This document shows, in pieces, positions 725-26,414 of a stretch of 38,857 nucleotides of DNA. A program made the translations under genes and the position numbers. Origin of the DNA: Caldithrix sp. GTDB lineage: Bacteria > Zhuqueibacterota > Zhuqueibacteria > Thermofontimicrobiales > Sulfurfontimicrobiaceae. The stretch is taken from NCBI GenBank assembly GCA_020722815.1, contig DYKB01000065.1, positions 1 through 38,857 on the forward strand, read 5' to 3'. Positions within the stretch are counted from its first letter, which is position 1; every line of letters starts with the position of its first letter. Below the pieces are notes generated by a model, which did no database searches, was not told where the DNA came from, and saw nothing but the letters and a program-made list of their open reading frames with translations.

Positions 725-727
725 AAT

Positions 728-2089: not shown

Positions 2090-2100
2090 GATTTTCTCCT

Positions 2101-2766: not shown

Positions 2767-2767
2767 C

Positions 2768-3481
2768 TCAGGACTCCTTATCTTTAAGTAGCCGTTTTTT
2801 TAATTGCGCTAATTCATCGACGACAGCTTGTTCCGTCAGATAGCGGTCGAATTGCGCAGATGGATTGAGTATCGTTTCGTAAATTTCTCTATTGGCTTCA
2901 ACTTGCGATTCAAGTTTTAGAATTTCTTCCTCCAGATTATTCATCAAGGTATTCAATTTAAGCAGGGTAAAATCACCAGATTGATCAACTGCAAATTTTG
3001 CATCTGAGTCGAATTCCGATTTCCAGTTTCCGATTTGGTTCTCAACGAGAATTTTTCGCCGTTCCAATTCCTGGCTTTTCTGCTGAACTTTTTCAAATTC
3101 TTTTTCCAAAAGTGCCAGTTCTTGTTTGAATTGGGTGGCAATTTGTGTTGCCTGTTTGAATTCACCTTCTAATTGTGTCCGTGAAGTTTGTATTTGTAAT
3201 TTTTTCGTAATGGCATCGCGGGCTTGTAATTCATTCTCTTTTTCAAATGCTTTTTGAGCTTCCTGTTCAAATATTTCTATTTTCGCATCAATTTCATTAA
3301 TTTGTTGTTCATATTGCTTTTGACAGGTCACCGCCCGAACAGTCTCCCGTCGCAAACGCAGGTGAAGTCCTTCAATTTCGGCGATGAGCTTCTTTATTTT
3401 GATTTCGGGATGCTGTTCAGGTTCCAGTGCGGCATTGAGATTGGCGCGAAAAATTTGATAAATTCGATTAAGCAGCCTCAT
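2768..3481 (-). CDS. pspA: PspA/IM30 (phage-shock protein A / Vipp1 / LiaH) family protein. The ORF track starts at 3496 (TTG), but the ATG at 3481 with a GAGGG RBS fits the family N-terminus.
   Basis: N-terminus MRLLNRIYQIFRANLNAALEPEQHPE matches the PspA start (M..F.R....ANINALL.K.EDP). Rest of the protein is coiled-coil. Only 1 nt gap to nfeD. Confidence 0.8.
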   Translation of the reverse strand: MRLLNRIYQIFRANLNAALEPEQHPEIKIKKLIAEIEGLHLRLRRETVRAVTCQKQYEQQINEIDAKIEIFEQEAQKAFEKENELQARDAITKKLQIQTSRTQLEGEFKQATQIATQFKQELALLEKEFEKVQQKSQELERRKILVENQIGNWKSEFDSDAKFAVDQSGDFTLLKLNTLMNNLEEEILKLESQVEANREIYETILNPSAQFDRYLTEQAVVDELAQLKKRLLKDKES

Positions 3482-3793
3482 AAATTGCCCTCGCAATTTG
3501 CATCTTAAATGATAAAAATTTATTAATACACATCATCAAAAATTGATGTTCCATGATTCGTCGCTGCGTGAAATTACTGGCATCCAGATTCTGGCATGAT
3601 TGAAAAATGATTTTAAGCAAGCAAATCATCCAGGTTAACCTTTGTCATCTTCAGACTTATTTTATACCATTTCAATACGTGAATACGAAACTTAAGGTTT
3701 CATATTTGCACTTTTTGATGAATTTTTCAAATATCTCTGTTTATTAAAGATCACATTATCATTTTTAAAAATCAAGAGAAACTTTGGCTTTGG

Positions 3794-4461: not shown

Positions 4462-7400
4462 TTAGCGGAGGAGTAGCATTTTATAGACTTTCTTTAGTGC
4501 AGGCGTCGCGATTGAAGCATAATAAACACCGCTGGGAACAATTTTACCAATCGAATCCTTCCCATCCCAGCTAATTTTATACGAACCCGGAGAATTCCAC
4601 TCATCCCGAAGAACACAAAGCTGGTGGCCAAGGCTGTTATAAATAATGATACGGACCAGACCTGAATTTTCCTGAAAATACCTTATTTGGGTTATTGCAT
4701 TGAAGGGATTTGGGAAGGTCCCAACTGCATATTCTTGGATTATAGACTCCCGGGTATTTTTCAGGTCAGGAGGCGCGGGCGGAAGCAGCGTTAGATTATT
4801 AGGACTTGTGCCTGATATCAACTGGTCAGGATTTAGCGATATTTGAGCAGGACCGGATACGATATTTAAAGTACACTGTTGAGTTGCATAAATCCAATAG
4901 CCTTTCATCGGTTCCAAAAGTGCTGTCCCCGCGGGATAAATGGGAATCACCGATTGTGTATTCGTATCCCATCCATGAACGCTGGTGATAGTACCATCGG
5001 GTTCATCGTTGGGATCGTTAAACGTCACCGGCGCAAGAGGTGAACCGATTAAATGCCAGCCTGGGCTCAATGTTGATTGCAGTTCGTACACCGGAATCCC
5101 TGTAATCGTAAGCGTTTGAGGGCTAGCAACGTGAAGCCAATAGCCGCTATTAGGCAGCAAGCTATCGACCTGTTGATAAATCGTTTGACGATTATTGAAT
5201 ATGTACGCCGCCATATCGTGCGATAAAATTGCATTCACGCGCTGGTTTGCCGGATAAACTGGCACTGAAATAAGATACCAACCAGCTATCGGAAATTCAT
5301 AATTGACCTGAACCGGCCGGGGGGTATAGTCAATCTGAATTAATTGCGCGTGACTGATTTGTGCTGAACTTGAAATCGACATGTCGAGATTCAGATTACC
5401 ACCGCTCAACTGAAAGCAATAATTTTCAATCTGGGGAAGATCGGCAGGCTCCCATGATATTGAAACGGGATTTGCCAATGAATCACCCGTAATTATTTTC
5501 CAGCCGATACTATCGGTGTAAGGCAGGCACCAGGGCTGAATATCCCGAGCTAACGTGTCCTGATCATGTAAGAAAAAATTGGAATACGTCATTCTTACTG
5601 AATCCATCGCTTCATCGAGTCCGGCGTCAAAATCTCTGCTCGCACACGAATCTCCGCCAATCGTCAGATAATAAACAGAATCACCCGTTTCAATTCGGAT
5701 CGGTAACTCCCATTGTGCACCAATTCTACCCCAAATTGGCACCTGAAGAAATCGCTCATCTGAATCATTGCAGACAATTTTAATGAGGCTCTGCTCCTGG
5801 TTGCGACTGATGGCCAGAAAATTAACCCGCAGCGAACAACATTGTCCGGACTCCAGTAAAATGGGCAAAGCATCCAGATTCGTCAGGCGATAATTGGAGG
5901 AATCCAGACGGGTTTCCAACTCAATGTTGAGTAATTGAAGCGCCTGGTTCCCCTGATTAACAATTTTGAGGTATTGTTCTGAAAAAGAGCCCAATTTAAC
6001 CACGCCAAAATCCATTTTTTCGGGAAAAGTCTGAATTTCAGGTCCGAAATTACCAATTTGAAAAACAGAATCACTTTCATCTGAAATTATATCGTCCAGG
6101 CTGCTGATTTTGATTTTGCATTGCTTACTTTCTGGTCCGGAAACCAGCCACAATTCATTCTCATCATTGAAAGTCGAATCCAATAAAGTTTCCCAGCTAA
6201 TTCCATTGTCACGGGTCAATTCAATTTTAATCGCACGATCGTAATTTTTTGCAATCCAGGAAATTGTCTGATTTGAGCCAGGCGACCAAAGGTCTCCACT
6301 TCCCGGACACGTCAGGGAAAGTGATGGCGTGGCGTCGGTTATAAATTTTATTGATAAAGAACCGGTGGTGTTGGCTGCTACCAAAAGCGGCGTCTGTTGC
6401 GAGACAAAAACGCTCTCAGGATTTCGATTTTCATAATTCTCAAACTGCTCAATGGCAAAATAACCAATCCGGGCGGTTTCTGTCGTTGCATTATTTTGAA
6501 CTTTTAAACGCCAATAACCCTGATTTGCTTCGATATATTTGGATAATTCAGAAACATCAAGTACCATAAAATTTGCTGGAAACGAGGAATTACCGCCTTT
6601 TAATTGAAAATCATTAAAAGACTTCGTTTTATAGGTAATGCTTTCATCACAAACATCAATGGAAATCGCACATTGCCCCCGTTGGGGGTGTTGAATTTCG
6701 AAAACAGAAAGTAATTGAGGTTGATAATTTTCGTAATTTTGATAAACCATGTAAAATTTAATGCGCTCTTTTAAACACTGGTATGAAATATAATAAAATC
6801 CATCATGAACCTTTTCCCAATTATAAGTGCCAACGCCCCATGAATTTGCAATTTTGAATGCCCCCCGAAGGTCGGTTTTTCCATTTTCAGGGTAGGGACC
6901 AAAATTATCATCATAACCCACGATAACATTGGCATGATTTACCTCGGTTGCTAGGTAATTATCGGTTGTCCACAGGTCATCATTGGATAATTTTGCATAA
7001 TAACGCGCATCGATGGCAATCAGTGCCAGATTCTGATTGGCAAGTAAACTTTTAAGATTTTGCAGGGCATCATCGGAAGTTAAATCGGTGGTCGCAAAGG
7101 CCGTTGCCGAACGATAAAGGGGTGCTTCGCGCCAGGCTGTTTCGGTAGGCCAGGTGGTGGAATTAAATGGATTATAGGGCATATTTTCCCAGGTGGCACA
7201 ACCGATACGTTCCAGCAGATTCATAGCGTCATAAAAAGTGGCACCCTCATCTTTGCCATCGTTAATCTGGTGATAAATAAAATCTGGCGAAAAAATTTTG
7301 GCATGATATGATGGATCGGGCTGGCCATAATCGTTCTGATTCCAGACACATTTCGAAAGGTCCCATTGGTGTTCGCGTGCTTCCTGGAAGGTTTTAACAT

Positions 7401-7773
7401 AGTACCCACAGGCCCAGCCAATGCAGGAACCTTCACTGTATTGATTACCAATTGGCGGAAACCAGTGGGTCAGGGCATTATCCACCTTATTGGGGAGCTC
7501 CAGCGAAACCGATTGGACATATTCCAATCTAACCGGTGCGCTGGAAATTTCAGCCCACTCACTTTCTGTCGGCGGTCTCAAGCCCGTTCCCTGCCCGAGA
7601 ATCCGCTCATTATAATTTTTTCCTTCCTGGAAAGTACCCAAATATGCTCGTAATTCATCCAATTCTTTTACAGTCAGATGTCTTCTGGTTGTCTTTATGT
7701 GACGCGCAGCCGTCGAAGAAAAAAGTACGAGACAGGTAAACAGGAAAATAGTCCAACGTCGTTTCTGTAACAT
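4462..7773 (-). CDS. Secreted papain-family (C1) cysteine peptidase with a long beta-rich extension and a T9SS C-terminal sorting domain
   Basis: Signal peptide. Catalytic motifs QYSEGSCIGWACGYY (Cys), NHANVIVGYDDNF (His) and NSWGVGTYNW...GFYYISY (Asn/Trp). C-terminus ...SGVYYASIATPALKKVYKMLLLR is a typical Por_Secre_tail. Confidence 0.8.
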   Translation of the reverse strand: MLQKRRWTIFLFTCLVLFSSTAARHIKTTRRHLTVKELDELRAYLGTFQEGKNYNERILGQGTGLRPPTESEWAEISSAPVRLEYVQSVSLELPNKVDNALTHWFPPIGNQYSEGSCIGWACGYYVKTFQEAREHQWDLSKCVWNQNDYGQPDPSYHAKIFSPDFIYHQINDGKDEGATFYDAMNLLERIGCATWENMPYNPFNSTTWPTETAWREAPLYRSATAFATTDLTSDDALQNLKSLLANQNLALIAIDARYYAKLSNDDLWTTDNYLATEVNHANVIVGYDDNFGPYPENGKTDLRGAFKIANSWGVGTYNWEKVHDGFYYISYQCLKERIKFYMVYQNYENYQPQLLSVFEIQHPQRGQCAISIDVCDESITYKTKSFNDFQLKGGNSSFPANFMVLDVSELSKYIEANQGYWRLKVQNNATTETARIGYFAIEQFENYENRNPESVFVSQQTPLLVAANTTGSLSIKFITDATPSLSLTCPGSGDLWSPGSNQTISWIAKNYDRAIKIELTRDNGISWETLLDSTFNDENELWLVSGPESKQCKIKISSLDDIISDESDSVFQIGNFGPEIQTFPEKMDFGVVKLGSFSEQYLKIVNQGNQALQLLNIELETRLDSSNYRLTNLDALPILLESGQCCSLRVNFLAISRNQEQSLIKIVCNDSDERFLQVPIWGRIGAQWELPIRIETGDSVYYLTIGGDSCASRDFDAGLDEAMDSVRMTYSNFFLHDQDTLARDIQPWCLPYTDSIGWKIITGDSLANPVSISWEPADLPQIENYCFQLSGGNLNLDMSISSSAQISHAQLIQIDYTPRPVQVNYEFPIAGWYLISVPVYPANQRVNAILSHDMAAYIFNNRQTIYQQVDSLLPNSGYWLHVASPQTLTITGIPVYELQSTLSPGWHLIGSPLAPVTFNDPNDEPDGTITSVHGWDTNTQSVIPIYPAGTALLEPMKGYWIYATQQCTLNIVSGPAQISLNPDQLISGTSPNNLTLLPPAPPDLKNTRESIIQEYAVGTFPNPFNAITQIRYFQENSGLVRIIIYNSLGHQLCVLRDEWNSPGSYKISWDGKDSIGKIVPSGVYYASIATPALKKVYKMLLLR

Positions 7774-8060: not shown

Positions 8061-8496
8061 TACTACATGAAAACTTGCTTCTTTTTAACCGGGAGTTGGA
8101 TTCCATTTGACTATTTGTTCATCCTGATTTTCATTTTACATCACATTTGAATGTTTGTTGCTAATTTTAAATAATTGAAATTTCAATAATTCAATATTAT
8201 AAAATAGCAATTATTTTTTAAAAAGTCAAATATATTTTTTAACACGATTGCAATCAATTCTGCAGTCCTGTCAATTAAAATTTAACCCAATCTCCTTTTC
8301 CACCTGGCACTATTTCAAGTTTTATACCAGATTAGCGTAATCTAACATTATGATAATAAATAAGTTATATTTTTAAAATAATAACAATCTCCCCTAAAAA
8401 GAGACAAGAAATTTCGATTCGAACGATGGACAATAGATATAATTGTTAGAAATTTTGTATTAATTAACCAACTAAAATTATTCAGATACCCATAAA

Positions 8497-8533
8497 TAAA
8501 AAAAGCCCTGAAATCCATCTCAGGGCTTTTTGA
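8497..8533. terminator. Bidirectional intrinsic-terminator-like hairpin (A-run, AGCCCTGA / TCAGGGCT, T-run) in the middle of a 1.2-kb intergenic region
   Basis: AAAAAAAGCCCTGAAATCCATCTCAGGGCTTTTTG. Confidence 0.4.
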
Positions 8534-9023
8534 AAATAACCAGGAAAACGGAGGGAGGAAAAGTACGTTATCCTGCAAAAAATATTAGGGTGTATAAGGA
8601 AACTTGAAGGGACACACTGTCCCAATTTAATACAAAAAATCCAGCAATATATTTTGAAATGTATGCTATTTAATAAAATTATAATATATAGTCTGATTTA
8701 TTCCAATTTTGCTCCTTTAATTAAAATAGTGATATATTTTGTAATTGTCAAGTCTTTTTTCATCTTAATTCATTTTTTTTAATTCGGATTCCTGCTTAAA
8801 TGAACGAAGAGAGATTTAATGTACAGAACGAATACGTATATTACTCAGATTCCATAAAGAAATCGTAAAAAAGACTTGAATCTAATCAAATTGATCATTA
8901 TACTTTTATTGTTTTTCATCGAGATGCGGTTCTAATTTTTATGAAAAACACAGAAATGGCAGGTCTCAATAAAAAACGCGATTTATTTAATAGACCCTTA
9001 CTCATAAAATGGAGGAATTAAAA

Positions 9024-9875
9024 ATGAAACAATCAACACGCCGAGATTTTTTTAAACTAGCCGGAACCGGTGTTCTCTCCGCGTCATTTTTATCGTCAAT
9101 TAGTCCAGACGATTTAAGTGCCATGCCAGAGAAGAAATCCGGCCAACCCCTGCTCAATCTCGGAATGGCTTCCTATACTTTTCGAAAATTTAGTATGGAA
9201 AAGACTATTGAAATGACCAAAAGGCTGGGTCTGAAACACATTGCTTTTAAAAGCATGCACTTGCCACTGGAAAGTACAGCGGACGAGGTTCGGGCAGTCG
9301 CCGCAAAAGTAAAAGAAGCGGGTCTCGATCTCTATGGCTGTGGCGTTGTTTATATGAAAGATGAAGCATCCGTGCAGCAGGCCTTTGATTATGCAAAAGC
9401 GGCAGGGATGAAGGTCATTATCGGCGTTCCCAACCATGAGTTACTTGAACTTGTGGAACTGAAAGTTAAAGAATTCGATATTCAGGTTGCCATCCATAAT
9501 CATGGACCGGGCGACAAATTATATCCAACACCGGAGAGTATTTACGAGAAGATTAAAAAGCTTGATTCGCGAATTGGCCTCTGCGTTGATATTGGCCATA
9601 CCCAACGCGTCGCGATTGATCCCTCAGCGGCGGTAAAAAAATATCAAGATCGACTGCTCGATATCCATGTTAAAGACGTGAGTGCATCAACGCCTGAAGG
9701 TAAAACCGTCGAAATTGGACGCGGGGTAATTGATATTCCCAAATTTTTAAAAACACTTATTAAGTTGAAATATACCGGAAAAGTGTCACTTGAATACGAA
9801 AAGGATGAAGCCGATCCACTTCCGGGTGCGGCGGAATCGATTGGTTATTTGAGAGGGGTTTTGGCGTTACTATAG
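9024..9875 (+). CDS. Tat-signal sugar-phosphate isomerase/epimerase (xylose-isomerase-like TIM barrel). Start taken at the ATG preceded by GGAGG; the ORF track begins at 9009.
   Basis: Twin-arginine motif STRRDFFKLAG. TIM-barrel AP-endonuclease/xylose-isomerase-like fold motifs (IHNHGPGD, CVDIGH). Confidence 0.75.
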   Translation: MKQSTRRDFFKLAGTGVLSASFLSSISPDDLSAMPEKKSGQPLLNLGMASYTFRKFSMEKTIEMTKRLGLKHIAFKSMHLPLESTADEVRAVAAKVKEAGLDLYGCGVVYMKDEASVQQAFDYAKAAGMKVIIGVPNHELLELVELKVKEFDIQVAIHNHGPGDKLYPTPESIYEKIKKLDSRIGLCVDIGHTQRVAIDPSAAVKKYQDRLLDIHVKDVSASTPEGKTVEIGRGVIDIPKFLKTLIKLKYTGKVSLEYEKDEADPLPGAAESIGYLRGVLALL

Positions 9876-9894
9876 TTTTATGTATTCCCCAATT

Positions 9895-9942
9895 TAATTA
9901 AAAACCGGCGGATGTGTTCTTTTCCGCCGGCTTATATTTTTG
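9895..9942. terminator. Bidirectional rho-independent terminator between convergent genes
   Basis: AAAAACCGGCGGA-tgtgttctttt-TCCGCCGGCTT followed by ATATTTTT. A-run on the other side. Confidence 0.6.
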
Positions 9943-9951
9943 CTAAATTAA

Positions 9952-12903
9952 TTACTTTTGCTCCGTATAAATCGTCACCATCACTCGCCGATTCAACTGT
10001 CTTCCCAGTGCTGTTTCATTATCCCCAAGGAGAATCTTTTCGTCAGTTGGAGAAAGAAATTCCAGCGGTTCATTTTCACCATGTCCTTCCGGCGCATCGA
10101 TCCGGTGGCGAATTTGATTAAAAATATCCGGATATCGTGATTTTAAATCTTTCACAAATTGCTCATGGAAAATTCTGGCGCGGCGAATGGAAAGAATTTT
10201 ATTCACTCCTTCCGGGCCAACTGCACAGCCATGGCCGACAAATTTGATTCGCTTATCCGGTGACTGTATTAAATGCGGTATCATATCTTCCAGATTTGAC
10301 CAGTAAAAATTATAATACGGTTTGGCCTCGGCAAATTTGGCGATGAGATAATAAGATCGTTCAATATTTGTTTTTTCAGTATTTAAAACAGCATTCTTTA
10401 GTCGGGTGCGAAATTTACGGCCCAATGAATCAGTTAATGTTAATGAATAACCCAGATTTTGAATTTCACCATTAATCTGCTCCTTTAAACGTGATTCAGA
10501 TATTTGCCAATCAAATGGCCTGAAGAGTCGATTTTTAGCAAATTTTGATAAAATACTAACCAGATCGGAGGTTTCATTTAACTCAAGGGCCATAAATGCG
10601 CTTTCAAGCGCAACGGCACTGCTGATTTCACCATTAAATTGGATGGGAAAAAATTCTTTTCGCTTGTTTACCGATTGAACCGGATAAAATAAGACTTTTT
10701 CAATCGATTCTTCAATAGAAATCGTAACGTATCTTCGTTCTTCCAGGATGTGTCGCGCATCGTTTTGATTTTTTGGTAATGTGCGTTTTGCAAGGAGTTC
10801 ACCAGGCATTATCATAATTTGTTCTGAACGAACTCCCAATTTTATCAGTGAATCACGGACCGCCAGGGCGCGCGCGTTCGCCAGATTCACATTTATTTCA
10901 TCAGCGTTGGGATCAGCCGTGCCCTGGAGCCTGACTTTCAAATCCCGCTGCTCATTCAATCTTCTGGCAAAATAGGTGAGCGGCGGCAGAACGGAAGAAA
11001 TTTTCCCAAATTGATTTTTGATAACAGCACTATTTTGCCCGAAAAAGATTTTCCCGATGTAGGGCAACTCAAAAATTTTCGTATAGACTTTTGCTGCCAA
11101 TAGTGTATCCGCAGTAAAGAATCGCCCTTTGGGAATTGTAAAAAACTTTTCTGTTCGCTGTGTATGCAATTTTGTGGTTAAGCTATCTTCCGACTTCACT
11201 ATTTTGGCAGAAATTGCATGTAACCCCGGTGTCGAAGTGTGCCATCCAATGACAACGGCAGTTGAATCACCTGATTTTAAATCAGGAATATCTTTTTTTG
11301 CCATTGCAGGACGAACAGAATGGATCGAATCCGAATTGACCGATTTCTCGGGATTCGCTTTGGCCGGAAAATTATCAAAAAGCTGAAGCTGAAAATTTTT
11401 CGCGACCTTTTCACCTAAATTCTTAATGACAATTTTCAATTTCCCCTGGTAATCATCTTCAGTAATCCAGGAATCCGGTTCAAAAACAAAAGCCAAAATC
11501 TCGGGATCAGGCGCTGTCAAAGTAAAGTTGGCAATTTTATGGCGGCCCCGGTTTGCGAAACGAATATGCTGATCCCGATCATAAGCAAAAACCAGCCAAT
11601 AATATTTACCGGAATTTAACCGGGTGCTCAAAAATTCGGTTTGAAGCAGTCGTTCATTGATATGGAAGTTCATTTTCGGTAATTCATAAATGAGACTGAC
11701 GGGATCTTCCTGACTTTTTTTAATAACGTCCACCAACTTAACGCTATCTTTGCTGGCAAGCAGCCAATAGTTCAAATTATCATAAAGATCAGGATCGCGC
11801 GATGCTTCCCAGCGAAAAGGAACGGCATCTTCATCAATTTGAGCCCCCATTTCAGGCGATTCCATTTGAAATCGCTCGGGAAGCAGCGGTTGATGGGTCA
11901 CCGTCCCATGATAGGGCGCATCAAAAAAGCTATTTTCCTGATTAAGCGCCAGATCAACCCGGAGGGCATTATTTCGGCCTGGAAATAAGTTTTGAAAAAC
12001 CTGATCATTCAGTTGAAGGCTGCCCCCAACCGTTAAATTTCCCAACAAATTATCTTCCAGGCTAAATCCCATCTGAATTGCAATAAAATTCCGCCAGGAA
12101 AGTTCAGTCCCTAACGATAAAAAGCCTTCTTCATCCTTCACCTGACGGTAATCGATACCCGTGCTCAATTGAACTCCCCGATGTGAACCCAGATGCAGGG
12201 CGGTACCCATCCGAAAAGTTTCGGGAAGGGGTGTTCCTTGATTATTGTAGTGAATTTCGTCGCCCAGATTATTGATACCAATACCGGCGGTAAAAATCGC
12301 GTACTCAAAAGCATTAAATGATGCCGACTCAAAATTAATTCTCGGCGAACGAAACAGAATCCCTGTATCAAAAATAACGGCATTGGCATTAAAATCTGCC
12401 AATTGGCTGTTGAAATATTTGATATTAAATCCCCAGAGCAAATTGGGTGTCAGCTTACTTAAGGGTTGACCAATACTCATGGTTGCCACGAGATGATGCC
12501 CACCAACGCCAGCCGTGGTCGCGCGCGCACTATTAAATGTAGGAATTCCCAGATAATTCACCCCCAAAATCATTCGTGTCTGCTGGCTGATGGGATTCCG
12601 CAGTCGACGACCAAAGAGGAAAGTCGTATGATAAATATCCGAAACCCAGGTTGAATAACTGCTGGACCAGAACCATTCACGGCTCAAGCCGGTGGCTGCC
12701 GGATTTGAAAAATAGGAATATGAATAATCGAGTACACTGGTTGTGCTACCGGCCATCCCGACACCGCGTGCATCGGGAACGATTTTCAAGTAGCCAATTC
12801 CGGAGCGAATTTGCCCATAACTTAATCCAAAGATCAGGAGGATGAGACAAAATCCGGTAGTTACATTCTTTATATGGTTTATTTGTATTTTTCTCATGTT
12901 CAC
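9952..12903 (-). CDS. Outer-membrane protein: N-terminal beta-barrel (PorP/SprF- or PorV-like, uncertain), central CARDB-like region, two C-terminal OmpA-like peptidoglycan-binding domains. Putative anchor/partner for the upstream T9SS adhesin.
   Basis: Signal peptide. Aromatic-rich alternating beta-strand N-terminal ~330 aa ending in a C-terminal Phe-type barrel pattern. OmpA-like cores LQGTADPNADEINVNLANARALAVRDSL and FVGHGCAVGPEGVNKILSIRRARIF...APEGHGENEP. 9 bp downstream of the adhesin gene. Confidence 0.55.
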   Translation of the reverse strand: MNMRKIQINHIKNVTTGFCLILLIFGLSYGQIRSGIGYLKIVPDARGVGMAGSTTSVLDYSYSYFSNPAATGLSREWFWSSSYSTWVSDIYHTTFLFGRRLRNPISQQTRMILGVNYLGIPTFNSARATTAGVGGHHLVATMSIGQPLSKLTPNLLWGFNIKYFNSQLADFNANAVIFDTGILFRSPRINFESASFNAFEYAIFTAGIGINNLGDEIHYNNQGTPLPETFRMGTALHLGSHRGVQLSTGIDYRQVKDEEGFLSLGTELSWRNFIAIQMGFSLEDNLLGNLTVGGSLQLNDQVFQNLFPGRNNALRVDLALNQENSFFDAPYHGTVTHQPLLPERFQMESPEMGAQIDEDAVPFRWEASRDPDLYDNLNYWLLASKDSVKLVDVIKKSQEDPVSLIYELPKMNFHINERLLQTEFLSTRLNSGKYYWLVFAYDRDQHIRFANRGRHKIANFTLTAPDPEILAFVFEPDSWITEDDYQGKLKIVIKNLGEKVAKNFQLQLFDNFPAKANPEKSVNSDSIHSVRPAMAKKDIPDLKSGDSTAVVIGWHTSTPGLHAISAKIVKSEDSLTTKLHTQRTEKFFTIPKGRFFTADTLLAAKVYTKIFELPYIGKIFFGQNSAVIKNQFGKISSVLPPLTYFARRLNEQRDLKVRLQGTADPNADEINVNLANARALAVRDSLIKLGVRSEQIMIMPGELLAKRTLPKNQNDARHILEERRYVTISIEESIEKVLFYPVQSVNKRKEFFPIQFNGEISSAVALESAFMALELNETSDLVSILSKFAKNRLFRPFDWQISESRLKEQINGEIQNLGYSLTLTDSLGRKFRTRLKNAVLNTEKTNIERSYYLIAKFAEAKPYYNFYWSNLEDMIPHLIQSPDKRIKFVGHGCAVGPEGVNKILSIRRARIFHEQFVKDLKSRYPDIFNQIRHRIDAPEGHGENEPLEFLSPTDEKILLGDNETALGRQLNRRVMVTIYTEQK

Positions 12904-12911
12904 TCTCGCTG

Positions 12912-15900
12912 CTATCGCACTATCATCACTTTTTTATATGCATTATATGGGTCTGATTTTAAAGTAATGAGATACAGACCACTCCCAACTTTCATTCCAT
13001 TTTGCGTCCACCCATTCCAGTAATAGGTGTTCCATCCTGCCGGATAAAAAGCATCCGTTAATTGCGTCACATGCGAACCCGCCAGGTCATAAACATCCAG
13101 CTTCGCCTGCCGATTCGTACTCAGTTTAAAGTTAATCCCCAGGCTTTCTTCGCTCTCAGGCTGATAAACATTTCGTTCCAACACGAAATCATTGCTGCTA
13201 TATATTTCAACCGAGGTGGAAGAACGCGCCGTATTTCCGGCGATATCAGTCACAATCAATTCAAACCGGATTTCTTCATGATCCGCCGATGAATAAAGCC
13301 GGGTATTCGTATATTTTATCGGAAGGGTAATTTTTATACCCGGTTGAATCATGATTGTCGAAACAAGCTCATCTGCAAAATTCTTTTCTATCTCCCCATT
13401 TGCCAGATATACCCAGATATCCCAGGTTTGAACCGGATTGGAGACCTCGATCTCAATCGTAATCGGCTCACCAACTTCAATTTTTCTGGGCAAAGTTCCG
13501 ATCGAAACGCTTAAATCACCAATTGGTATTTGTGATTGGATATTATACACCGTATCTGTCACACTATTGTTACCGCGATGGGGATCGCCTTCGTTTTGCG
13601 CCTGAATTCTTACCTGATTTATCAACAAATTTTCACCAATCGGCATGATGGCGGGTACCGTCGCATCAAACTGAATGGAAATAGTTGAATCAGGCATTAA
13701 TTGACCGAATTCCCAGACAATTTTACGATTTGCATTTTGAACCGGTGGATGATTAAAATTATTCGTGGTAACAAATTGTGGAATTGAATCAGCTACAATC
13801 AGATTTCTCGCAATACCTTCGGATATATTCTGAATGCGAATGCGATATTGATAAGTTTCACCCGATTTTGCAAAATGAATCGTATCACCGGCAATAATCG
13901 TGAAAGAATCCGTATCAGTAAATTGAATGACCGAAATATCGACCGGCGGCGCGGACTGAATATTGACGACAGTATCGATGACGACATTATTGCTCCGGTA
14001 TTCTTCAGCTTCATTTTGGGCATTTATCACAACCTGATTTATTAATAAATTTTCACCAAGTGGCATCCCAACCGGCACCGTCGCCTCAAAACTGAGGAAC
14101 AGCATTGAATCCGGTCGCAGTCGATTAATTTGCCAGGTTACTTTTCGATTTTCTTTCTGAACCGGTTGAATATTAAAATTACTGACGCTGACAAATTCCG
14201 GTATAGAATCCGTTACCATAATATTTTGTGCAACGCCTTCCAACAAATTTTCTATCTGAATAAAATAGTGGTATGTTTCTCCTGATTTGGCATAATGAGT
14301 TGTATCCCCGTCATTTACAATAAATGAATCGGTTTTCACAAGTTGGCTCACCGAAACATCCACTGGCAGTTGAGGCTGACTTTGAATATTAAAAACTGTG
14401 TCAATCGTGCTATTGTTATCCAGATACTCCGGACTTTCATTTTGGACCTGAATTTGAACCTGATTGATTAACAAATTCTCTCCCAGCGGCATTAAAAATG
14501 GAACTGATGCATTGAATTTGATAAATATGGATGAATCTGGCATTAATTGGGGAATTTCCCAAATTAACTTTCGATTTGTATTCTGATCCGGTGGTCTATT
14601 AAATTGACTCGTTAAAATAAATGCCGGAAGTGAATCTATAATAACGATATTCTGCGCTATGCCTTCCAATTGATTTCGAATCAAAATTTGATATTGGTAG
14701 GTTTCACCGGATTTAACAAAATGAACGGTATCACCCGCCATGATGGCCATTGAATCCGTTTTAATGAACTGAAGCACCGATACATCAACCGGAAATTGAG
14801 GTTGACTTTGAATATTGATGACGGTGTCGACAACGCTATTATTTTTTAAGTACGTACTATCTTCGTTTTGCGCCGACACCTGAACCTGATTAATCAATAA
14901 ATTTTCACCAACCGGCATTATCATTGGCAAAGTCGCATCAAATGTAATTTGAACTATCGAATCAGGTAATAACTGACCAACTTCCCAAATGATTTTTCGC
15001 TTCGCATTTTGAACCGGTGGAATGTTAAAATTTACGACTGTAACAAAATTCGGGATTGAATCGGTAATAACGATATTTTGCGCCACTCCATCCGATGGAT
15101 TTTGAATTCGGAGTTGATAATGGTAAGTTTCTCCCGACTTTGCATAACGTATCGTATCCCCGGCAACAATAGCAAAGGAATCTGTTTTGACATAATGCCG
15201 CACCGCAACATCCACAGGTGGTTCTGGTTCGTTTACAATATTAAATACCGTGTCAACAACACTATTATTACCCAAAAATTCTGAATGCTCATTAGCGGCC
15301 TGTATTTGCACCCGGTTTATTAGCAAATTTTCACCTGTTGGCATTGCCACTGGCAAGGTTGCATTAAAGGTGACAATAAAAATCGAATCCGGCGGTAATT
15401 GATCAATTTCCCAGGTTATTTTTCGATTGCTATTTTGAACAGGTACCTGATTAAAATTATCAACAGAAACAAATTCCGGAATAGAATCAATTATAACGAC
15501 ATTTCTGGCTACGCCTTTCGAGGGGTTTTGAACTAAAACGTGATATTGATAAGTTTCACCTGACTGTGCGTAATGAACAGTATCACCGGAAATTACGACA
15601 AATGAATCGGTTTTGGTAAACTGGGTGACAGAAATATCAACATCGGGAGAATCGATTGGCGCAAATGGAATGGCCATTATATTGGTTTCGGCAAAATTAT
15701 TATCCAGCAGCGAATCAAGCCGGGCAAACACACCACTTCGATTAATGACCTGAAATGAATCAGCAATGAGCGAATCTGTAAGTCGCGCTTGAAATTCCAC
15801 GGCCATCGATTGCCCTGCCAGCAGTGAATCAATCAACCAGAACAGCGTATCCTGTACCTGAGAATCTGGTGATACCGAAAAATTGAATAAATCAACTGAA

Positions 15901-17591
15901 TCCGATAAAATATCCCACAATTTTATTTCATGGGCAGTCACCGGACCCAGATTTTGAATTTGTAATTGATAGCGATACTGCTGTCCCGGTAAAACGACCT
16001 GAATCGAATCGCCATTAATTAAAATTAAGGAATCGGTTTCAACTTCTTGTGATAAGGACAGATCAAATTTATATTCAACCGGCGGTGCTGGTGGATTCAA
16101 AACGGTAATTGAATCTATATCAGTATTATTTTGAAGTGAGGAGTCGTTGTCAACATAAACATAAGCCTGACTCTTCAATTGCGTCATATTCGTAAAATCG
16201 CTATCAGGTAAAAACACGTTAATTTGCAATTCAATTTCATTACCTGGTGCCAATTCATCAAGCTCCCAACTCAGCATTCGGGAGTTAAGTTGGCGGGCCT
16301 GTTCTGAAGCATTTATAAATTGGACATGATCGGGTAAAATATGAATCATTTTCAAATTCCTGGCGATTTCAGCATTCAGATTTCGAACGGTAAGGGTATA
16401 TTGAAAATTATTTCCAGGCTCTACCGCCCGAAGGGTTTCGCCATTCACAACGACAGCCGTATCAGATACAGAACTCAATCCGATTGACACATCGGTAAAA
16501 GGGCCGGTGCCCTGAACAAAATATCGACCGGTTCCTTGGCCGGAGCCTGAAGCCGTATTGACTGTAACATCGACAACGCGCCAGGTATTGTTATACACCG
16601 GATCAGTTGATGTATGGGCCATGATATAAAAATTATGGATTAACTGCGAAAGGTGTCGATAAATATCTTCAATATTCCGATTGGCATCTGTCTGGAAAAA
16701 CAATCCGCCAGTACTATCAGCAATCGCCTTTAAAGTATCTGGATTTGCCCCGGTCCCGTATGCAATTGTAAAAATAGAAGTATTATAGTATAAAGCACTG
16801 TCGACAACATCTTCTTTAGTATAGATTGACGCGTTATCTTCACCATCGGCATATACAATAATCGACCGTTTACCAGTGATATTTTTTAATTGTTGAATTG
16901 CCAGAATCAGGGCATCATAAAGTCCCGTTCGACCTCTGGCCTGAGCAGTGTTTAAAACGGCCATCAATTGTGTCGTATCGGCCGTGATGGGTTGATTCGC
17001 AATTATCTGATCATCAAAGACAATGATACCAACTTCATCATTCGAACGCATCATCCGAACAAAGCTTCGCGCACCTTCAACTGCATTGGTAATCTCTTTT
17101 CGCATACTCCAACTGGCATCCATCAACAGCATGGTGCGAACCGGAATGTCGATCGCCTCACGAATTTCTGTAAATAAAGGCTGAGGTTGTTGAAAAAATA
17201 CATTGGGACTGGCTGGCAAATCGGGATTTTCATGATGATATTCGAGAACAGGCTGCCAGATATCTGAAATGCGTGAACCTATCTCCGCGGTTTCATCGGC
17301 TCCCAACCAGCGAGCAGTATCTGCCAGGCCAGTTATGGGTACCCCCGAACTATCCAGTACCGAGATCGTTGATAAAATTGGAAATGGAAAATCCGCGACC
17401 AGCCCATGGACTTCAAAATCACGATTGAGAGAGATCGTATTAATGCTGACTTTTAATTTTAATAAATCATTATTCTGGGTAAGTGCTTTTTGTGAACCAA
17501 GCAAAATAAAAAATCCAGAAAAAAGTAACAGTATTTGCCGAAAAATAACAAATACATTCTCCAAATGACATCGCTTCCGTGTGATATGCAT
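12912..17591 (-). CDS. Giant T9SS-secreted adhesin: signal peptide, vWA domain with intact MIDAS (LLMDASWSM), at least 7 DUF11 (conserved repeat domain, PF01345-like) repeats, T9SS C-terminal sorting domain
   Basis: DxSxS MIDAS motif. Repeated ~141-aa units GDTxHYAKSGETYxY...ARNxxxxDSIPxF...NRKIxWExxQLxPDSxxxIxFxATxP. C-terminus GSGLYLITLKSDPYNAYKKVMIVR. Confidence 0.8.
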   Translation of the reverse strand: MHITRKRCHLENVFVIFRQILLLFSGFFILLGSQKALTQNNDLLKLKVSINTISLNRDFEVHGLVADFPFPILSTISVLDSSGVPITGLADTARWLGADETAEIGSRISDIWQPVLEYHHENPDLPASPNVFFQQPQPLFTEIREAIDIPVRTMLLMDASWSMRKEITNAVEGARSFVRMMRSNDEVGIIVFDDQIIANQPITADTTQLMAVLNTAQARGRTGLYDALILAIQQLKNITGKRSIIVYADGEDNASIYTKEDVVDSALYYNTSIFTIAYGTGANPDTLKAIADSTGGLFFQTDANRNIEDIYRHLSQLIHNFYIMAHTSTDPVYNNTWRVVDVTVNTASGSGQGTGRYFVQGTGPFTDVSIGLSSVSDTAVVVNGETLRAVEPGNNFQYTLTVRNLNAEIARNLKMIHILPDHVQFINASEQARQLNSRMLSWELDELAPGNEIELQINVFLPDSDFTNMTQLKSQAYVYVDNDSSLQNNTDIDSITVLNPPAPPVEYKFDLSLSQEVETDSLILINGDSIQVVLPGQQYRYQLQIQNLGPVTAHEIKLWDILSDSVDLFNFSVSPDSQVQDTLFWLIDSLLAGQSMAVEFQARLTDSLIADSFQVINRSGVFARLDSLLDNNFAETNIMAIPFAPIDSPDVDISVTQFTKTDSFVVISGDTVHYAQSGETYQYHVLVQNPSKGVARNVVIIDSIPEFVSVDNFNQVPVQNSNRKITWEIDQLPPDSIFIVTFNATLPVAMPTGENLLINRVQIQAANEHSEFLGNNSVVDTVFNIVNEPEPPVDVAVRHYVKTDSFAIVAGDTIRYAKSGETYHYQLRIQNPSDGVAQNIVITDSIPNFVTVVNFNIPPVQNAKRKIIWEVGQLLPDSIVQITFDATLPMIMPVGENLLINQVQVSAQNEDSTYLKNNSVVDTVINIQSQPQFPVDVSVLQFIKTDSMAIMAGDTVHFVKSGETYQYQILIRNQLEGIAQNIVIIDSLPAFILTSQFNRPPDQNTNRKLIWEIPQLMPDSSIFIKFNASVPFLMPLGENLLINQVQIQVQNESPEYLDNNSTIDTVFNIQSQPQLPVDVSVSQLVKTDSFIVNDGDTTHYAKSGETYHYFIQIENLLEGVAQNIMVTDSIPEFVSVSNFNIQPVQKENRKVTWQINRLRPDSMLFLSFEATVPVGMPLGENLLINQVVINAQNEAEEYRSNNVVIDTVVNIQSAPPVDISVIQFTDTDSFTIIAGDTIHFAKSGETYQYRIRIQNISEGIARNLIVADSIPQFVTTNNFNHPPVQNANRKIVWEFGQLMPDSTISIQFDATVPAIMPIGENLLINQVRIQAQNEGDPHRGNNSVTDTVYNIQSQIPIGDLSVSIGTLPRKIEVGEPITIEIEVSNPVQTWDIWVYLANGEIEKNFADELVSTIMIQPGIKITLPIKYTNTRLYSSADHEEIRFELIVTDIAGNTARSSTSVEIYSSNDFVLERNVYQPESEESLGINFKLSTNRQAKLDVYDLAGSHVTQLTDAFYPAGWNTYYWNGWTQNGMKVGSGLYLITLKSDPYNAYKKVMIVR
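13500..15650. repeat. Five near-identical tandem repeats of ~423 bp (141 codons) inside the adhesin gene. More diverged copies extend to ~16500.
   Basis: Recurring strings such as AATTTTCACCAA(T/C)CGGCAT at ~13620, 14050, 14470, 14900 and 15330 (period ~423 bp). Confidence 0.8.
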
Positions 17592-18367
17592 TGATTCTTC
17601 CCTGCTATTTTTGAATCTGGTCAGAATTATTTAAAGAAAAAATTGTATTCAAAACCGGATTGTTAATCCCTTAATCCCAAAATTATATCATTTTATCATG
17701 AAATTGACTCAAGATTTAACCAGGCATAAAGTTCAGAACTAACAAACATTATACCAAATGATTTTGGGCCATTTTATCAATTTTAGGCGCTTTAAATCAT
17801 TAATTTCAATTTTTGAATTAAGGACAGATTGAATCATCCTGAAACAATTACAGCTTTGGTCGTCACTCAAGAATATGTATTTCAAATGTTTTGAGCAACT
17901 TCAATCTGACGGCGATGCCCCAGGCCTTCCAAGGGAGAATAGGACTTTTTCATTTGAATCTTGCCCGGGTTACTATTCCAGGTCTTCTCCCTGAAGGGGA
18001 ATTGGGGCACACCCATCAGAATAATTTGATAAATATAATATTTTGGTAACGTTATATTTAAATTGCCATGAGCTATAGAGGCTGTCCGAGAACTAACCTT
18101 GCGAAGGTTAAAAAAACATAATATATCGCTTAAAATTGAAATATTAATCAATATATATAGTTCTACCCATTCAACAATTTTCGCGAGGTTACTTTTCGGA
18201 AAGACTCTAAATCGCGTGGCTATTCATTTGTTTTTTAATGAGTTAAAATCTTGACCTAATTGAAATGGGATTTAGGGGTGGGTTCGATTTATTTAATTCC
18301 GATAACCATTTTGTTAGTCCTATAAATATGAAAATATTTAATGACTAATTCCATCCAAATCGAATTG

Positions 18368-23943: not shown

Positions 23944-24492
23944 TTAAAAATTTAAATTCAATTCCCTGGCCGTAAATAAAAGCCCCATAATCGTTTTGCT
24001 ATCCCGAAATCGTTCCTGTTTGAGCCATTCGAGTGCTGTTTGAAACGGAAGTTTGATGTGCTCCAGAAATTCTTCCTGATCCGGCTGAAAATCTGGTTGG
24101 ACTTCAAGTTCTGTTGCCAGAAAAATCTTAATAACACCGGTGGAATAGCCTTCCGCATGATAATATGAAACCAACTTTTTCAGTTTGCCGGCCCGAATTC
24201 CAATTTCTTCCAACAATTCTCTTCGAGCGGTTTTTTCCGGTGATTCCGAAGGTTCAATAATACCGGCCGGGATTTCAATCAATGTTTCATTCACGGCCGG
24301 TCGCGAATGTCGGACGAAATGAACATTATTTTCGTTATCCAGTGCCAATATTGCAACAGCGTCACGTGGAACCACAATATCACGCATGGCATGACGGTCG
24401 TCCGGCAATGCAACTTCCCAGCGCTCAAACGATAAATAATTGCCCTTGTAAATCTGTTCTTTATGAACAACAACTTCTTCGATATTTTTCAT
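23944..24492 (-). CDS. NUDIX hydrolase (ADP-ribose / nucleotide-sugar pyrophosphatase type)
   Basis: Nudix box GIIEPSESPEKTARRELLEEIGI. Confidence 0.8.
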   Translation of the reverse strand: MKNIEEVVVHKEQIYKGNYLSFERWEVALPDDRHAMRDIVVPRDAVAILALDNENNVHFVRHSRPAVNETLIEIPAGIIEPSESPEKTARRELLEEIGIRAGKLKKLVSYYHAEGYSTGVIKIFLATELEVQPDFQPDQEEFLEHIKLPFQTALEWLKQERFRDSKTIMGLLFTARELNLNF

Positions 24493-24494
24493 TA

Positions 24495-26414
24495 CTATTT
24501 CCTGAATTCAATCATGGCATTTAAATAAGCCTCAGGCATCCCGGTATCGAAACGCTGGCCATCGACTACCACGCCATAAATGCCATCCAGTTGTCGGACT
24601 TTATCCAGCGCCGGGGTGAATTGAAATTCACCATGATCGCGGAGATTATTTTTAATTATTTCTTCCAGAAATCCAAAAATGGCCGGCTGTAAAACATAAA
24701 GACCAAAAATTGTCAAAAACTCATTTTCTGCCAGATTTTCAACCCGGAGATTATTTTTAGCATAATCCAGCGAGGGCTTTTCGAAAATTTCCGTGATATT
24801 CAATTCCTTGCCTGGCTCAATCCAAGTGCCCGTGACTGCACCATATTTACTGAGTTCGGTGGCCGGGGTTGTTTTTAAGCCAATGACATTTTTAGAATGT
24901 CGATGATAAATATTTAATACTTGCTTTGCACAGGAAACCGCAGTATTGGAACGATACAAATGATCACCCAGCATGAGTAAAAATGGCTCATTTTTAATCC
25001 ACTCTCTGGCACAAAAAACCGCATGGCCAAAACCTTCCTGCGATTCCTGGGGAATGATGCTGATTTTACGCCCAATCTCTTCCAGATAACGGGTATATTC
25101 TTTGAATTTATTTGGTAAATGATTCAAATGATAAGGCGACAGGGGTTGATTAAAGAAATCATTAAAAAATTCCACATCATTTTTATCCACCACCAGACAA
25201 ATTTCTTCTATGCCAGCCGCCAGGGCTTCTTCAATGATCACCAGAATAATTGGTTTCATCAATCCATCCCGATCCAGAATCGGGAAAAGCTCCTTTTTCA
25301 GCGTCTTGGTAGCCGGATATAATGGCGATCCAAATCCACCGGCCGTAATAACCGCTTTTTTCACCACTTTGGGTGGCGAGAGATGAAATCGCAAACATTT
25401 CACATCCAATTCTGTTTCCAGAATCTGGATGACCTTTTCCTGTTCAGCCGGACCTTTGGCCAATAACTGGGCGGTACCATCCCCCTGGGAACCGACCCCT
25501 TTCCCACCATAAATATAAGGCTGAATCGCCGGATAGTTTAACACCAGGTGCAATTTGGGCGCAGTTAACTGCGATAGACAGGCGGGCTTAAGATATTTGT
25601 CGAACATTTCCTGGGCCTTGCTTAAAATGGCCCCCAATTTTTCAGCGCTCCCCTCCTCGATGGCTTTCATGCCGTCCATGACAATCTGTTTATTCAACGG
25701 CCCCAGGTAATGCTGTACACCCTTGCCAATTTCCGAATCCGGAAACGGGTAATGTTGATTTAATTTTTGCAGGATTTCTTTCGTATCCTTTTCAGCATTC
25801 AAATCAACGATAATAAAATAAAAATCCCCACCGGCATTAAGTTCCTTTACGTTCAAAATATCCCGGTCATACTCCATTAAAATGGGACGCGTACCAAAAG
25901 CACACCCCTGATCCATTCGTCCGCAGCGGGAAGGAGTTGTTAATTCGCCCTGATAGGCCGCCTCCATTTCACCGCGAATGGTCATTTTCAGATCATAAAT
26001 CCGATTAAAAGCGCGTGCCACCAGCACACAAAATGCCGCAGAAGAGGAAAGCCCTTTTTTTAAGGGGAGATCCATCTTGTAACTCCGGATACTCAACCCT
26101 TTGACATGATAATTTGTCAGAATCACATACGCCACGCCAGCCGCATAGCTAAAAAAGCCACCTTTTTCAGCTTCATCCAGCAAGGCTTGTTTCTCCATGG
26201 AAATCTCATACGGTCCTAAAACCCGTCCATCATATAATTCACTGGTGAGAACCAATTTATTTGGATGCGATTCAACGGTGGCATAGATCCCCTGATTCGT
26301 TCCGGAAATAATCGTATAGCCTTTTTCCAGTGCAGAATTAATTCGCCGATAACCACCAGCCCAATCTGAGTGCTCTCCCAACAAGCAAATACGTCCTGGA
26401 ACAAATAAATCCAT
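24495..26414 (-). CDS. Bifunctional fusion: N-terminal GHMP sugar-1-kinase (galactokinase-like) and C-terminal GalU-like sugar-1-phosphate nucleotidyltransferase
   Basis: Galactokinase signature GRICLLGEHSDWAGG. GHMP ATP motif PLKKGLSSSAAFCV. GalU-like KAVITAGGFGSPLYPATKTLKKELFPI and GFGHAVFCAREWIKNEPFLLMLGDHLY. Confidence 0.75.
   Translation of the reverse strand: MDLFVPGRICLLGEHSDWAGGYRRINSALEKGYTIISGTNQGIYATVESHPNKLVLTSELYDGRVLGPYEISMEKQALLDEAEKGGFFSYAAGVAYVILTNYHVKGLSIRSYKMDLPLKKGLSSSAAFCVLVARAFNRIYDLKMTIRGEMEAAYQGELTTPSRCGRMDQGCAFGTRPILMEYDRDILNVKELNAGGDFYFIIVDLNAEKDTKEILQKLNQHYPFPDSEIGKGVQHYLGPLNKQIVMDGMKAIEEGSAEKLGAILSKAQEMFDKYLKPACLSQLTAPKLHLVLNYPAIQPYIYGGKGVGSQGDGTAQLLAKGPAEQEKVIQILETELDVKCLRFHLSPPKVVKKAVITAGGFGSPLYPATKTLKKELFPILDRDGLMKPIILVIIEEALAAGIEEICLVVDKNDVEFFNDFFNQPLSPYHLNHLPNKFKEYTRYLEEIGRKISIIPQESQEGFGHAVFCAREWIKNEPFLLMLGDHLYRSNTAVSCAKQVLNIYHRHSKNVIGLKTTPATELSKYGAVTGTWIEPGKELNITEIFEKPSLDYAKNNLRVENLAENEFLTIFGLYVLQPAIFGFLEEIIKNNLRDHGEFQFTPALDKVRQLDGIYGVVVDGQRFDTGMPEAYLNAMIEFRK

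Follow-up and report, generated by a model that had tools for sequence, protein, structure and literature searches.

The 38,857-nucleotide stretch of contig DYKB01000065.1 analyzed here in silico (Caldithrix sp., assembly GCA_020722815.1; hereafter the window) contains two adjacent minus-strand genes, A and B, which encode a large predicted adhesin and a protein that joins an outer-membrane barrel to OmpA-like domains. The question raised by this locus is whether B is the dedicated surface anchor of A and, if so, by what kind of machinery. A preliminary description of the sequence had compared the genes with the cargo/PorP(SprF) anchor pairs of type IX secretion systems (T9SS) in Bacteroidota, and had seen in B a PorP-PorE-like fusion. 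On balance, we favor the view that A and B form an operon of cognate cargo and anchor, part of a type IX-like pathway in an uncultured sediment bacterium of the candidate phylum KSB1, in which the C-terminal domain (CTD) of A would be held by the barrel of B and the periplasmic arm of B would be bound to the cell wall. The layout of the locus is as follows.

12912..17591, minus strand: gene A, 1559 aa from an ATG start; predicted secreted fibrillar adhesin, the cargo (open reading frame, Pfam/NCBIfam domains)
9952..12903, minus strand: gene B, 983 aa from a GTG start; predicted outer-membrane barrel with a fused periplasmic arm for wall binding
12904..12911, minus strand: spacer between A and B, 8 nt when counted to the GTG and 14 nt when counted to ATG 12897
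17592..18367, minus strand: intergenic region 5' of A, 776 nt with no open reading frame >=100 aa; presumed operon promoter region

Both open reading frames are present where the preliminary description had placed them, on the minus strand, a point that it had not given. It had also separated them by 9 bp; the adjacency stands, but the measured gap to the GTG is 8 nt. An ATG at 12897, two codons inside the GTG-start frame of B, is preceded by a Shine-Dalgarno-like GAGAG stretch, and database protein P0001, which is 96 % identical to B and whose name assigns it to a bacterium of candidate division KSB1, is 981 aa long. Therefore, B probably starts at ATG 12897, which gives a protein of 981 aa and a spacer of 14 nt. 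So short a spacer implies that the two genes are co-transcribed, and because a 776-nt gene-free stretch lies upstream of A and a convergent xylose-isomerase-like gene lies downstream of B, the pair reads as a two-gene operon. A sigma-70-like consensus match occurs at 17809-17780 in the region upstream of A, a consensus that may not be KSB1's; beyond generic consensus matches, the promoter and terminator scan around the pair returned nothing informative.

Pairing of cargo and barrel genes

A word-index search with B retrieved 59 homologues, mostly close to full length, and the few that bear a name are called 'PorV/PorQ family protein' and are assigned to KSB1 or Zhuqueibacterota. An exhaustive profile search returned 192 representatives at E<=1e-30, the majority of 960-1060 aa and covering the whole profile, together with variants that share just the barrel and the first sandwiches with B. 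Two of these (P0056 and P0058) continue from the barrel and first sandwich into DUF11 domains and a canonical GHTD OmpA-like domain, with a LysM in P0056. Both the hidden Markov model (HMM) E-values and the conservation of the family in ~190 database clusters are far beyond chance.

To define the neighborhood of these genes, one genome per species was scanned, giving 78 loci from metagenome-assembled genomes (MAGs) of KSB1, Zhuqueibacterota, and Calditrichota, several of whose records bear a different automatic organism label (e.g., 'uncultured Cytophagia'); upstream DNA was available for 74. Pairing was judged by tblastn of segments of A and B together with frame analysis, and proved to be near-obligate. 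In 73 of the 74 loci, the B homologue has as its immediate upstream neighbor a gene whose product terminates in a CTD like that of A (E 1e-17 to 1e-35). The cargo stop codon in paired loci lies 60-110 nt ahead of the start of the barrel match, and the frames therefore abut or overlap. The likeness to PorP(SprF) anchor pairs thus holds as a functional analogy, in gene order and in this synteny, but not for the components, as the barrel belongs to the PorV/PorQ family and the CTD is type A-like. A single B homologue (L023, 3088-6006, plus strand) has no adjacent cargo, its upstream genes being divergent; the same MAG holds a paired copy, L015.

Outside the pair little is constant. Cargo length ranges from ~700 to >3300 aa, and about half of the complete cargos have a von Willebrand factor A (vWA) head, the others being DUF11-only or cadherin-like/Big_9 proteins. 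Heads and stalks vary widely, and the constant part of the cargos consists of the CTD and the domain that precedes it. The window, L001, and L003 have unrelated genes on their flanks, so that no third gene is conserved, with the exception of a PorU-like gene in L036 and L041. Mean pairwise identity amounts to 49 % for the CTD (73 loci, 16 positions >=90 % conserved) and 45 % for the barrel, and the two distance matrices correlate (r = 0.68). Barrel and cargo class have also diverged together: in the barrel dendrogram, vWA-cargo and non-vWA-cargo loci occupy contiguous clades, and genomes with two copies hold one vWA and one non-vWA pair (e.g., L007 with L027, and L006 with L030). This is the pattern that would be expected of cognate pairs duplicating and diverging as units.

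The barrel of B and its periplasmic arm

The preliminary description had given the second protein a barrel-plus-OmpA architecture, and this is borne out by a 14-strand barrel in the AlphaFold2 (AF2) model, a PF00691 match in OmpA-like domain 1, and the alignment of domain 2. The AF2 model, built from a 24-sequence alignment, has a mean predicted local distance difference test (pLDDT) score of 75.8 and places 14 strands over residues 31-339; outside the barrel, pLDDT is mostly 80-94. The parts of B are listed below.

12814..12903, minus strand: residues 1-30, predicted signal peptide, with cleavage predicted before the invariant Q31-I-R33 (read from the translation)
11887..12813, minus strand: residues 31-339, 14-strand FadL-superfamily barrel, PorV/PorQ family
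11494..11871, minus strand: residues 345-470, beta-sandwich with a W..DPDLYD..YW motif, periplasmic by topology (AF2, invariant columns)
11104..11493, minus strand: residues 471-600, CARDB-like beta-sandwich (AF2)
10714..11061, minus strand: residues 615-730, OmpA-like domain 1, canonical ligand residues G661-T-A-D664 and R678
10324..10686, minus strand: residues 740-860, third beta-sandwich, between the OmpA-like domains (AF2; tblastn-conserved in most loci)
9955..10311, minus strand: residues 865-983, OmpA-like domain 2, conserved variant with G890-H-G-C893, R908, and N971-R-R973

The family assignment of the barrel comes from model NF033709 (PorV/PorQ family, cutoff 90), which scores 94.4 bits with the full protein and 97.7 bits with the barrel alone, over residues 36-299. 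The Pfam PorV model PF19572 gives 14-18 bits, under its cutoff of 27. The equivalog models of PorV and PorQ, whose cutoffs B misses by far, mark it as a distinct PorV/PorQ subfamily and not a housekeeping PorV or PorQ. A PorP/SprF assignment was considered and rejected, as no Pfam or NCBIfam model of that family matches the barrel at E<=10, a search in which HMMER filters drop most matches above E ~0.1. The same libraries gave no tetratricopeptide repeat (TPR), beta-propeller/WD40, or carboxypeptidase-regulatory-like domain (CRD) in B, and its signal peptide has no lipobox. Taken together, these results do not support the PorP-PorE-like fusion of the preliminary description, since B matches no PorP/SprF model and has none of the TPR, propeller, and lipoprotein features of PorE.

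Both termini of FadL and PorV barrels are periplasmic. Because both ends of such a 14-strand barrel face the periplasm, the C-terminal arm of B should be periplasmic as well, a placement that agrees with the periplasmic action of OmpA-like domains. At the other end of the protein, Q31 and R33 do not vary among the aligned sequences. The predicted mature N-terminus is G|QIR (Q31 at window positions 12811-12813, minus strand), with Gln in all 24 aligned homologues, and is reminiscent of the pyroglutamate 'Q-rule' for signal-peptidase-I substrates in Bacteroidetes. The first sandwich of the arm (residues 345-470) recurs elsewhere as 20-41 tandem copies in giant proteins of 2400-5200 aa (P0178, P0185, P0194, P0197, P0212, P0216, and P0219).

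OmpA-like domain 1 matches PF00691 with 41.7 bits (cutoff 27.2), and its G661-T-A-D664 and R678 align to the GHTD and the Arg (LSxARA) of Acinetobacter baumannii OmpA. Domain 2 carries GHGCAVG at residues 890-896, in which G890-H-G-C893, together with R908, aligns to the GHTD and Arg of OprF. The preliminary description had regarded this second core as degenerate, a view that conservation contradicts. Across 24 B homologues (32-76 % identity), the residues D664, R678, G890, H891, C893, N901, S905, R908, N971, R972, and R973 are all invariant. C893 is the sole invariant cysteine of the B family and occupies the place of the diaminopimelate (DAP)-binding Asp, GHTD having become GH[GA]C. With its motif invariant throughout the family, domain 2 is no decayed copy but a conserved variant, in which Cys takes the position of the Asp that contacts DAP.

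The adhesin A

Protein A fits the pattern of a fibrillar adhesin of the CLIPPER/DUF11 kind, in which an adhesive head is followed by a tandem DUF11 stalk and a sorting or anchoring tail. DUF11 was recently renamed CLIPPER and has been shown to be a CnaA-like domain of fibrillar adhesin stalks, able to bear a Lys-Asn isopeptide (bioRxiv 10.1101/2025.04.25.650565).

17475..17591, minus strand: residues 1-39, predicted Sec signal peptide with basic n-region RKR, hydrophobic core, and ALTQ (read from the translation)
16554..17177, minus strand: residues 139-346, vWA head domain with metal-ion-dependent adhesion site (MIDAS)
13530..16517, minus strand: residues 359-1354, stalk of seven DUF11/CLIPPER domains (CnaA-like) in tandem
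13182..13529, minus strand: residues 1355-1470, Ig-like beta-sandwich ahead of the CTD (tblastn-conserved in nearly all loci; AF2 beta-sandwich)
12915..13181, minus strand: residues 1471-1559, CTD, T9SS type A class at borderline score; beta-sandwich of 7 strands with GxY and KKxxIVR motifs

The MIDAS-containing vWA domain of the preliminary description is matched by PF13519 (47.3 bits) and TIGR03436 (83.3 bits vs a cutoff of 81.25). Its MIDAS residues are intact (D158-x-S160-x-S162, T222, and D249) and are conserved in 24-25 of 26 vWA-type homologues. For the stalk, where at least seven DUF11 repeats had been proposed, PF01345 finds 7 stretches (E 1.8e-59, 199.5 bits) and a self-search gives exactly 7 repeats of ~140 residues each, spanning residues 359-1354. 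Lys, Asp, and Asn stand at the alignment positions expected for the isopeptide triad in repeats 3-6 only (4 of the 7). This assignment is positional, because phmmer of a DUF11 repeat against the PDB gave chance-level matches and no direct alignment to the CLIPPER structure 9IFR. Protein A also matches DUF7619 and, toward its C-terminus, FlgD_ig/Por_Secre_tail (Pfam, NCBIfam).

The T9SS tail claimed for A is a closer call. The type A model TIGR04183 (cutoff 23) passes on the last 90 aa alone, with 25.1 bits, but stays under its threshold in the full-length protein. FlgD_ig matches the tail with 28-31 bits (28.2 for the last 90 aa; cutoff 27) and PF18962 with 15-20 bits (cutoff 27). A type B CTD was likewise considered and rejected, as no type B model (TIGR04131) matches the tail at E<=10 in Pfam or NCBIfam. 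The AF2 model of the pre-CTD domain and CTD (alignment of 4 sequences, pLDDT 74.5) consists of two tandem beta-sandwiches, with 7 strands at pLDDT 80-90 over residues 1469-1557 of the CTD. Foldseek with this model placed Porphyromonas gingivalis PorU (6za2) at the top with E 1.8e-6, with generic tandem-Ig proteins close behind. A sequence search with the last 220 aa of A found 3 homologues only.

Possible type IX secretion in KSB1 and related phyla

In two loci, a PorU-like gene lies beside the pair. In L036, a 1927-aa PorU-like sortase homologue with its own type A CTD lies convergent beside the B homologue (8477-14257, minus strand; PorU2 model E 3e-122, 409 bits with a cutoff of 450; PorU model E 3e-106, 356 bits with a cutoff of 420), and a 44 %-identical PorU-like copy occupies the same position in L041 (6583-8622, minus strand), from a KSB1-labelled MAG. 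The window itself has no PorU-like gene. It does encode a second type A CTD protein (4462..7773, minus strand; 1103 aa), which reaches 27 bits with TIGR04183 (cutoff 23) and has a HYDIN/ASH-type Ig domain; further TIGR04183 cargos occur in L005, L073, and L036. The N-terminal part of this 4462-7773 protein contains a papain-like-looking 'GSCIGWACGYY', a feature for which no Pfam model gave confirmation. A word-index search with the barrel profile for named stand-alone PorV proteins in KSB1 returned 15 matches, mostly fragments, and no taxon-resolved PorV.

The literature consulted describes T9SS as specific to Bacteroidota, and we found no publications on T9SS in KSB1, Calditrichota, or Zhuqueibacterota. 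In the systems described, PorV anchors PorU and PorQ anchors PorZ, both of which keep their CTDs, and type A CTDs of P. gingivalis are cleaved and swapped for anionic lipopolysaccharide (A-LPS) (PMC7463736). PorP binds the type B cargo PG1035 together with the wall-binding lipoprotein PorE, and SprF binds SprB (PMC9143113). Flavobacterium johnsoniae has operons of a substrate, an SprF-like shuttle, and a PorE-like protein that yield statically wall-anchored adhesins, and in the same account all type A CTDs are handled by PorV, with type A CTD conservation below 40 % (PMC12618676).

A proposed anchoring mechanism and its alternatives

On this background, a sequence of events can be proposed for the pair. 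A would be exported by Sec, and its type A-like CTD would then direct its crossing of the outer membrane by way of a T9SS translocon, presumably of the SprA/Sov type. There, the private PorV/PorQ-family barrel of B would capture A and hold it by its CTD, with PorV-PorU, PorQ-PorZ, and SprF/PorP as models. Finally, the 640-residue arm of B, with its three beta-sandwich spacers and two OmpA-like domains, would reach and bind peptidoglycan. The outcome would be a static, load-bearing chain that runs from the MIDAS vWA head of a surface-exposed A through an isopeptide-type CLIPPER stalk and a retained CTD to the barrel and the cell wall. It is tempting to speculate further that KSB1 and Calditrichota possess a third class of T9SS anchoring, in which a type A-like CTD is permanently docked in its own PorV-family barrel and tied to the wall within one polypeptide, in part by way of OmpA-like domain 2, whose Cys in the ligand position suggests a different wall chemistry, a proposal that we put forward more tentatively than that of the cognate operon and think rather less probable.

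Several points weigh against a cognate cargo/anchor operon. The case for physical binding between CTD and barrel is drawn from synteny and co-conservation, and the correlation between CTD and barrel distances could reflect shared phylogeny alone. One B homologue, that of L023, lacks a neighboring cargo. B falls far under the equivalog cutoffs of PorV (NF033710, 45.7 bits with a cutoff of 250) and PorQ (NF033711, 48.5 bits with a cutoff of 220), the barrel part of its model is of modest confidence (pLDDT 40-78), and the CTD of A is borderline to TIGR04183, with 20.6 bits in its full-length context. Type A CTDs of Bacteroidota are normally cleaved by PorU and not retained. Furthermore, the PorU-like sortase of L036 and L041 is the only T9SS machinery seen (SprA/Sov, PorK/L/M/N, and GldK-N were not searched for), and T9SS is held to be confined to another phylum.

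In the strongest alternative, B is a dedicated shuttle that would extract A from the translocon by its CTD. The CTD would next be removed by a PorU-like sortase and A joined covalently to a lipid or LPS anchor, as happens with ordinary type A cargo, and the OmpA arm would serve only to place B close to the secretion machinery. The type A class of the CTD, the PorU-like sortase genes that adjoin the pair in L036 and L041, and the exchange of P. gingivalis type A CTDs for A-LPS (PMC7463736) all speak for such a shuttle. However, a barrel that two OmpA-like domains fasten to peptidoglycan appears poorly suited to lateral shuttling, and the conserved pre-CTD domain and the 49 % conservation of the CTD, compared with less than 40 % for type A CTDs (PMC12618676), better fit a permanent and specific interface. 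In addition, the CTDs of PorU and PorZ are themselves retained, and PorV and PorQ serve as the anchors of these two proteins (PMC7463736). We therefore regard a cleaving shuttle as unlikely, while giving it more weight than any of the other alternatives. Far less room is left for a general OmpA/OprF-like tether or FadL-like channel whose linkage to A is regulatory or incidental, despite a barrel-plus-OmpA_C layout that is that of OmpA and OprF and the existence of the L023 orphan. Adjacency to one CTD class in 73 of 74 loci, kept through phylum-level divergence with flanking genes fully turned over, argues against incidental linkage, as do genomes in which two paralogous pairs occur, each tied to a different class of cargo, and the above-cutoff match to the PorV/PorQ HMM.

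Two further alternatives seem to us the least probable of all. A PorP/SprF-type barrel fused to a PorE-like module, with A as a cargo of type B kind in a Bacteroidota T9SS, would account for the cargo-then-barrel order and the OmpA_C-like wall module, which mirror the F. johnsoniae substrate-SprF-PorE operons, and the structural matches include the PorE C-terminal domain (6top). The models point the other way, since those for PorP/SprF and type B CTDs find nothing at E<=10 where those for PorV/PorQ and type A CTDs match, and B has neither the TPR, WD40, and CRD domains nor a lipobox. The host belongs to candidate division KSB1 and not to Bacteroidota, the phylum of the systems with which the preliminary description had compared the pair. 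The pair might instead be a self-contained display device that works without a T9SS translocon, with B exporting A or inserting its C-terminus, a view favored by the fact that core T9SS genes were not demonstrated (SprA/Sov and GldK-N were not searched for) and by a literature that restricts T9SS to Bacteroidota. From established knowledge of FadL and PorV, on the other hand, a 14-strand barrel is too narrow for a folded multidomain protein of 1559 aa, and both a PorU-like sortase and numerous proteins with type A CTDs occur. The cognate cargo/anchor operon therefore remains the explanation that we prefer.

Other genes of the window

Elsewhere in the window, four minus-strand genes at 173-3496 encode a CYTH-domain protein, an SPFH/flotillin-like protein, a membrane protein with an Asp/His-rich repeat, and a PspA/IM30 homologue, and are probably a membrane-stress module. 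A GHMP-kinase/nucleotidyltransferase fusion gene is followed by a NUDIX hydrolase gene at 23944-26414 (minus strand), and an Eco57I-type methylase gene lies at 35252-36817 (plus strand). The tRNA and Rfam scans of the window were empty.

Significance

Every domain of the pair is already known. In the literature searched, we found no description of the obligate pairing with one CTD class, of a PorV-family barrel with two OmpA-like domains, or of such an occurrence in KSB1 and Calditrichota. In current T9SS models, type A CTDs share a general PorV shuttle, private PorP/SprF shuttles serve type B CTDs only, and the wall anchor is a separate PorE. If the proposed anchoring is correct, the same logic as that of cargo-private shuttles would have been realized in another, uncultured phylum from other parts, namely a PorV-family barrel, a type A-like CTD, and a fused OmpA arm. 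Should the third class also prove real, the pair would be a minimal, one-operon force chain from ligand to peptidoglycan and would establish cargo-specific T9SS anchoring outside Bacteroidota. It would extend the reach of T9SS-type surface display within the Fibrobacterota-Chlorobiota-Bacteroidota (FCB) group, and would offer a compact natural fusion in which to study how a barrel holds a CTD and how adhesins are mechanically coupled to the cell wall. For databases, the analysis provides a concrete annotation for ~190 clusters, the few source-named ones of which are labelled 'PorV/PorQ family protein', 'OmpA-like', or 'hypothetical'.

Comparison with known systems

A surface protein tied to the wall through a barrel partner is not unprecedented. 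Like the substrate/SprF/PorE operons of F. johnsoniae (Fjoh_3952-3951-3950) and PorE-PorP-PG1035 of P. gingivalis, the locus has an adhesin gene followed by the gene of a 14-strand FadL-type barrel, and there are several paralogous pairs per genome. In those systems the barrel is specific for the CTD of its cargo and an OmpA_C-like module makes the complex static (PMC9143113, PMC12618676). Unlike them, the pair described here has a barrel of the PorV/PorQ and not the PorP/SprF family, a CTD that is type A-like and not type B, and a wall module that is fused to the barrel and consists of two OmpA-like domains with no TPR, propeller, or lipid anchor; its hosts are KSB1 and Calditrichota and not Bacteroidota.

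The nearest parallel for the barrel itself is found in PorV-PorU and PorQ-PorZ, in which a barrel of the PorV/PorQ family is the outer-membrane anchor of a surface protein (PMC7463736), a role that we infer for B. The CTD of A is, moreover, weakly similar to the CTDs of PorU and PorZ. B differs from PorV and PorQ in scoring under the equivalog cutoffs, in its extra 640-aa periplasmic arm, and in the strict adjacency of its gene to that of its partner, which is an adhesin and not a sortase or A-LPS carrier. With OmpA and OprF, B shares the joining of an outer-membrane barrel and an OmpA-like wall-binding domain in one polypeptide, and domain 1 keeps the Asp/Arg pair. In contrast to these proteins, the barrel of B is 14-stranded and PorV-like, not 8-stranded, and is followed by three sandwich spacers. 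B also has a second OmpA-like domain with Cys for the ligand Asp and an obligate pairing with a CTD cargo gene.

For the adhesin, the closest comparison is with the CLIPPER adhesin B9T28_05395 of Acinetobacter silvestris, which likewise combines an adhesive head, a tandem CLIPPER stalk, and an OmpA-like anchor (bioRxiv 10.1101/2025.04.25.650565), and the Lys, Asp, and Asn positions of A are compatible with intramolecular isopeptide bonds as in CLIPPER adhesins. One point of difference is that the full set of triad positions is present in just 4 of the 7 repeats of A. Whereas B9T28_05395 contains the OmpA-like anchor within the adhesin itself, here the anchor resides on a separate barrel protein and would be reached by way of a T9SS-type CTD.

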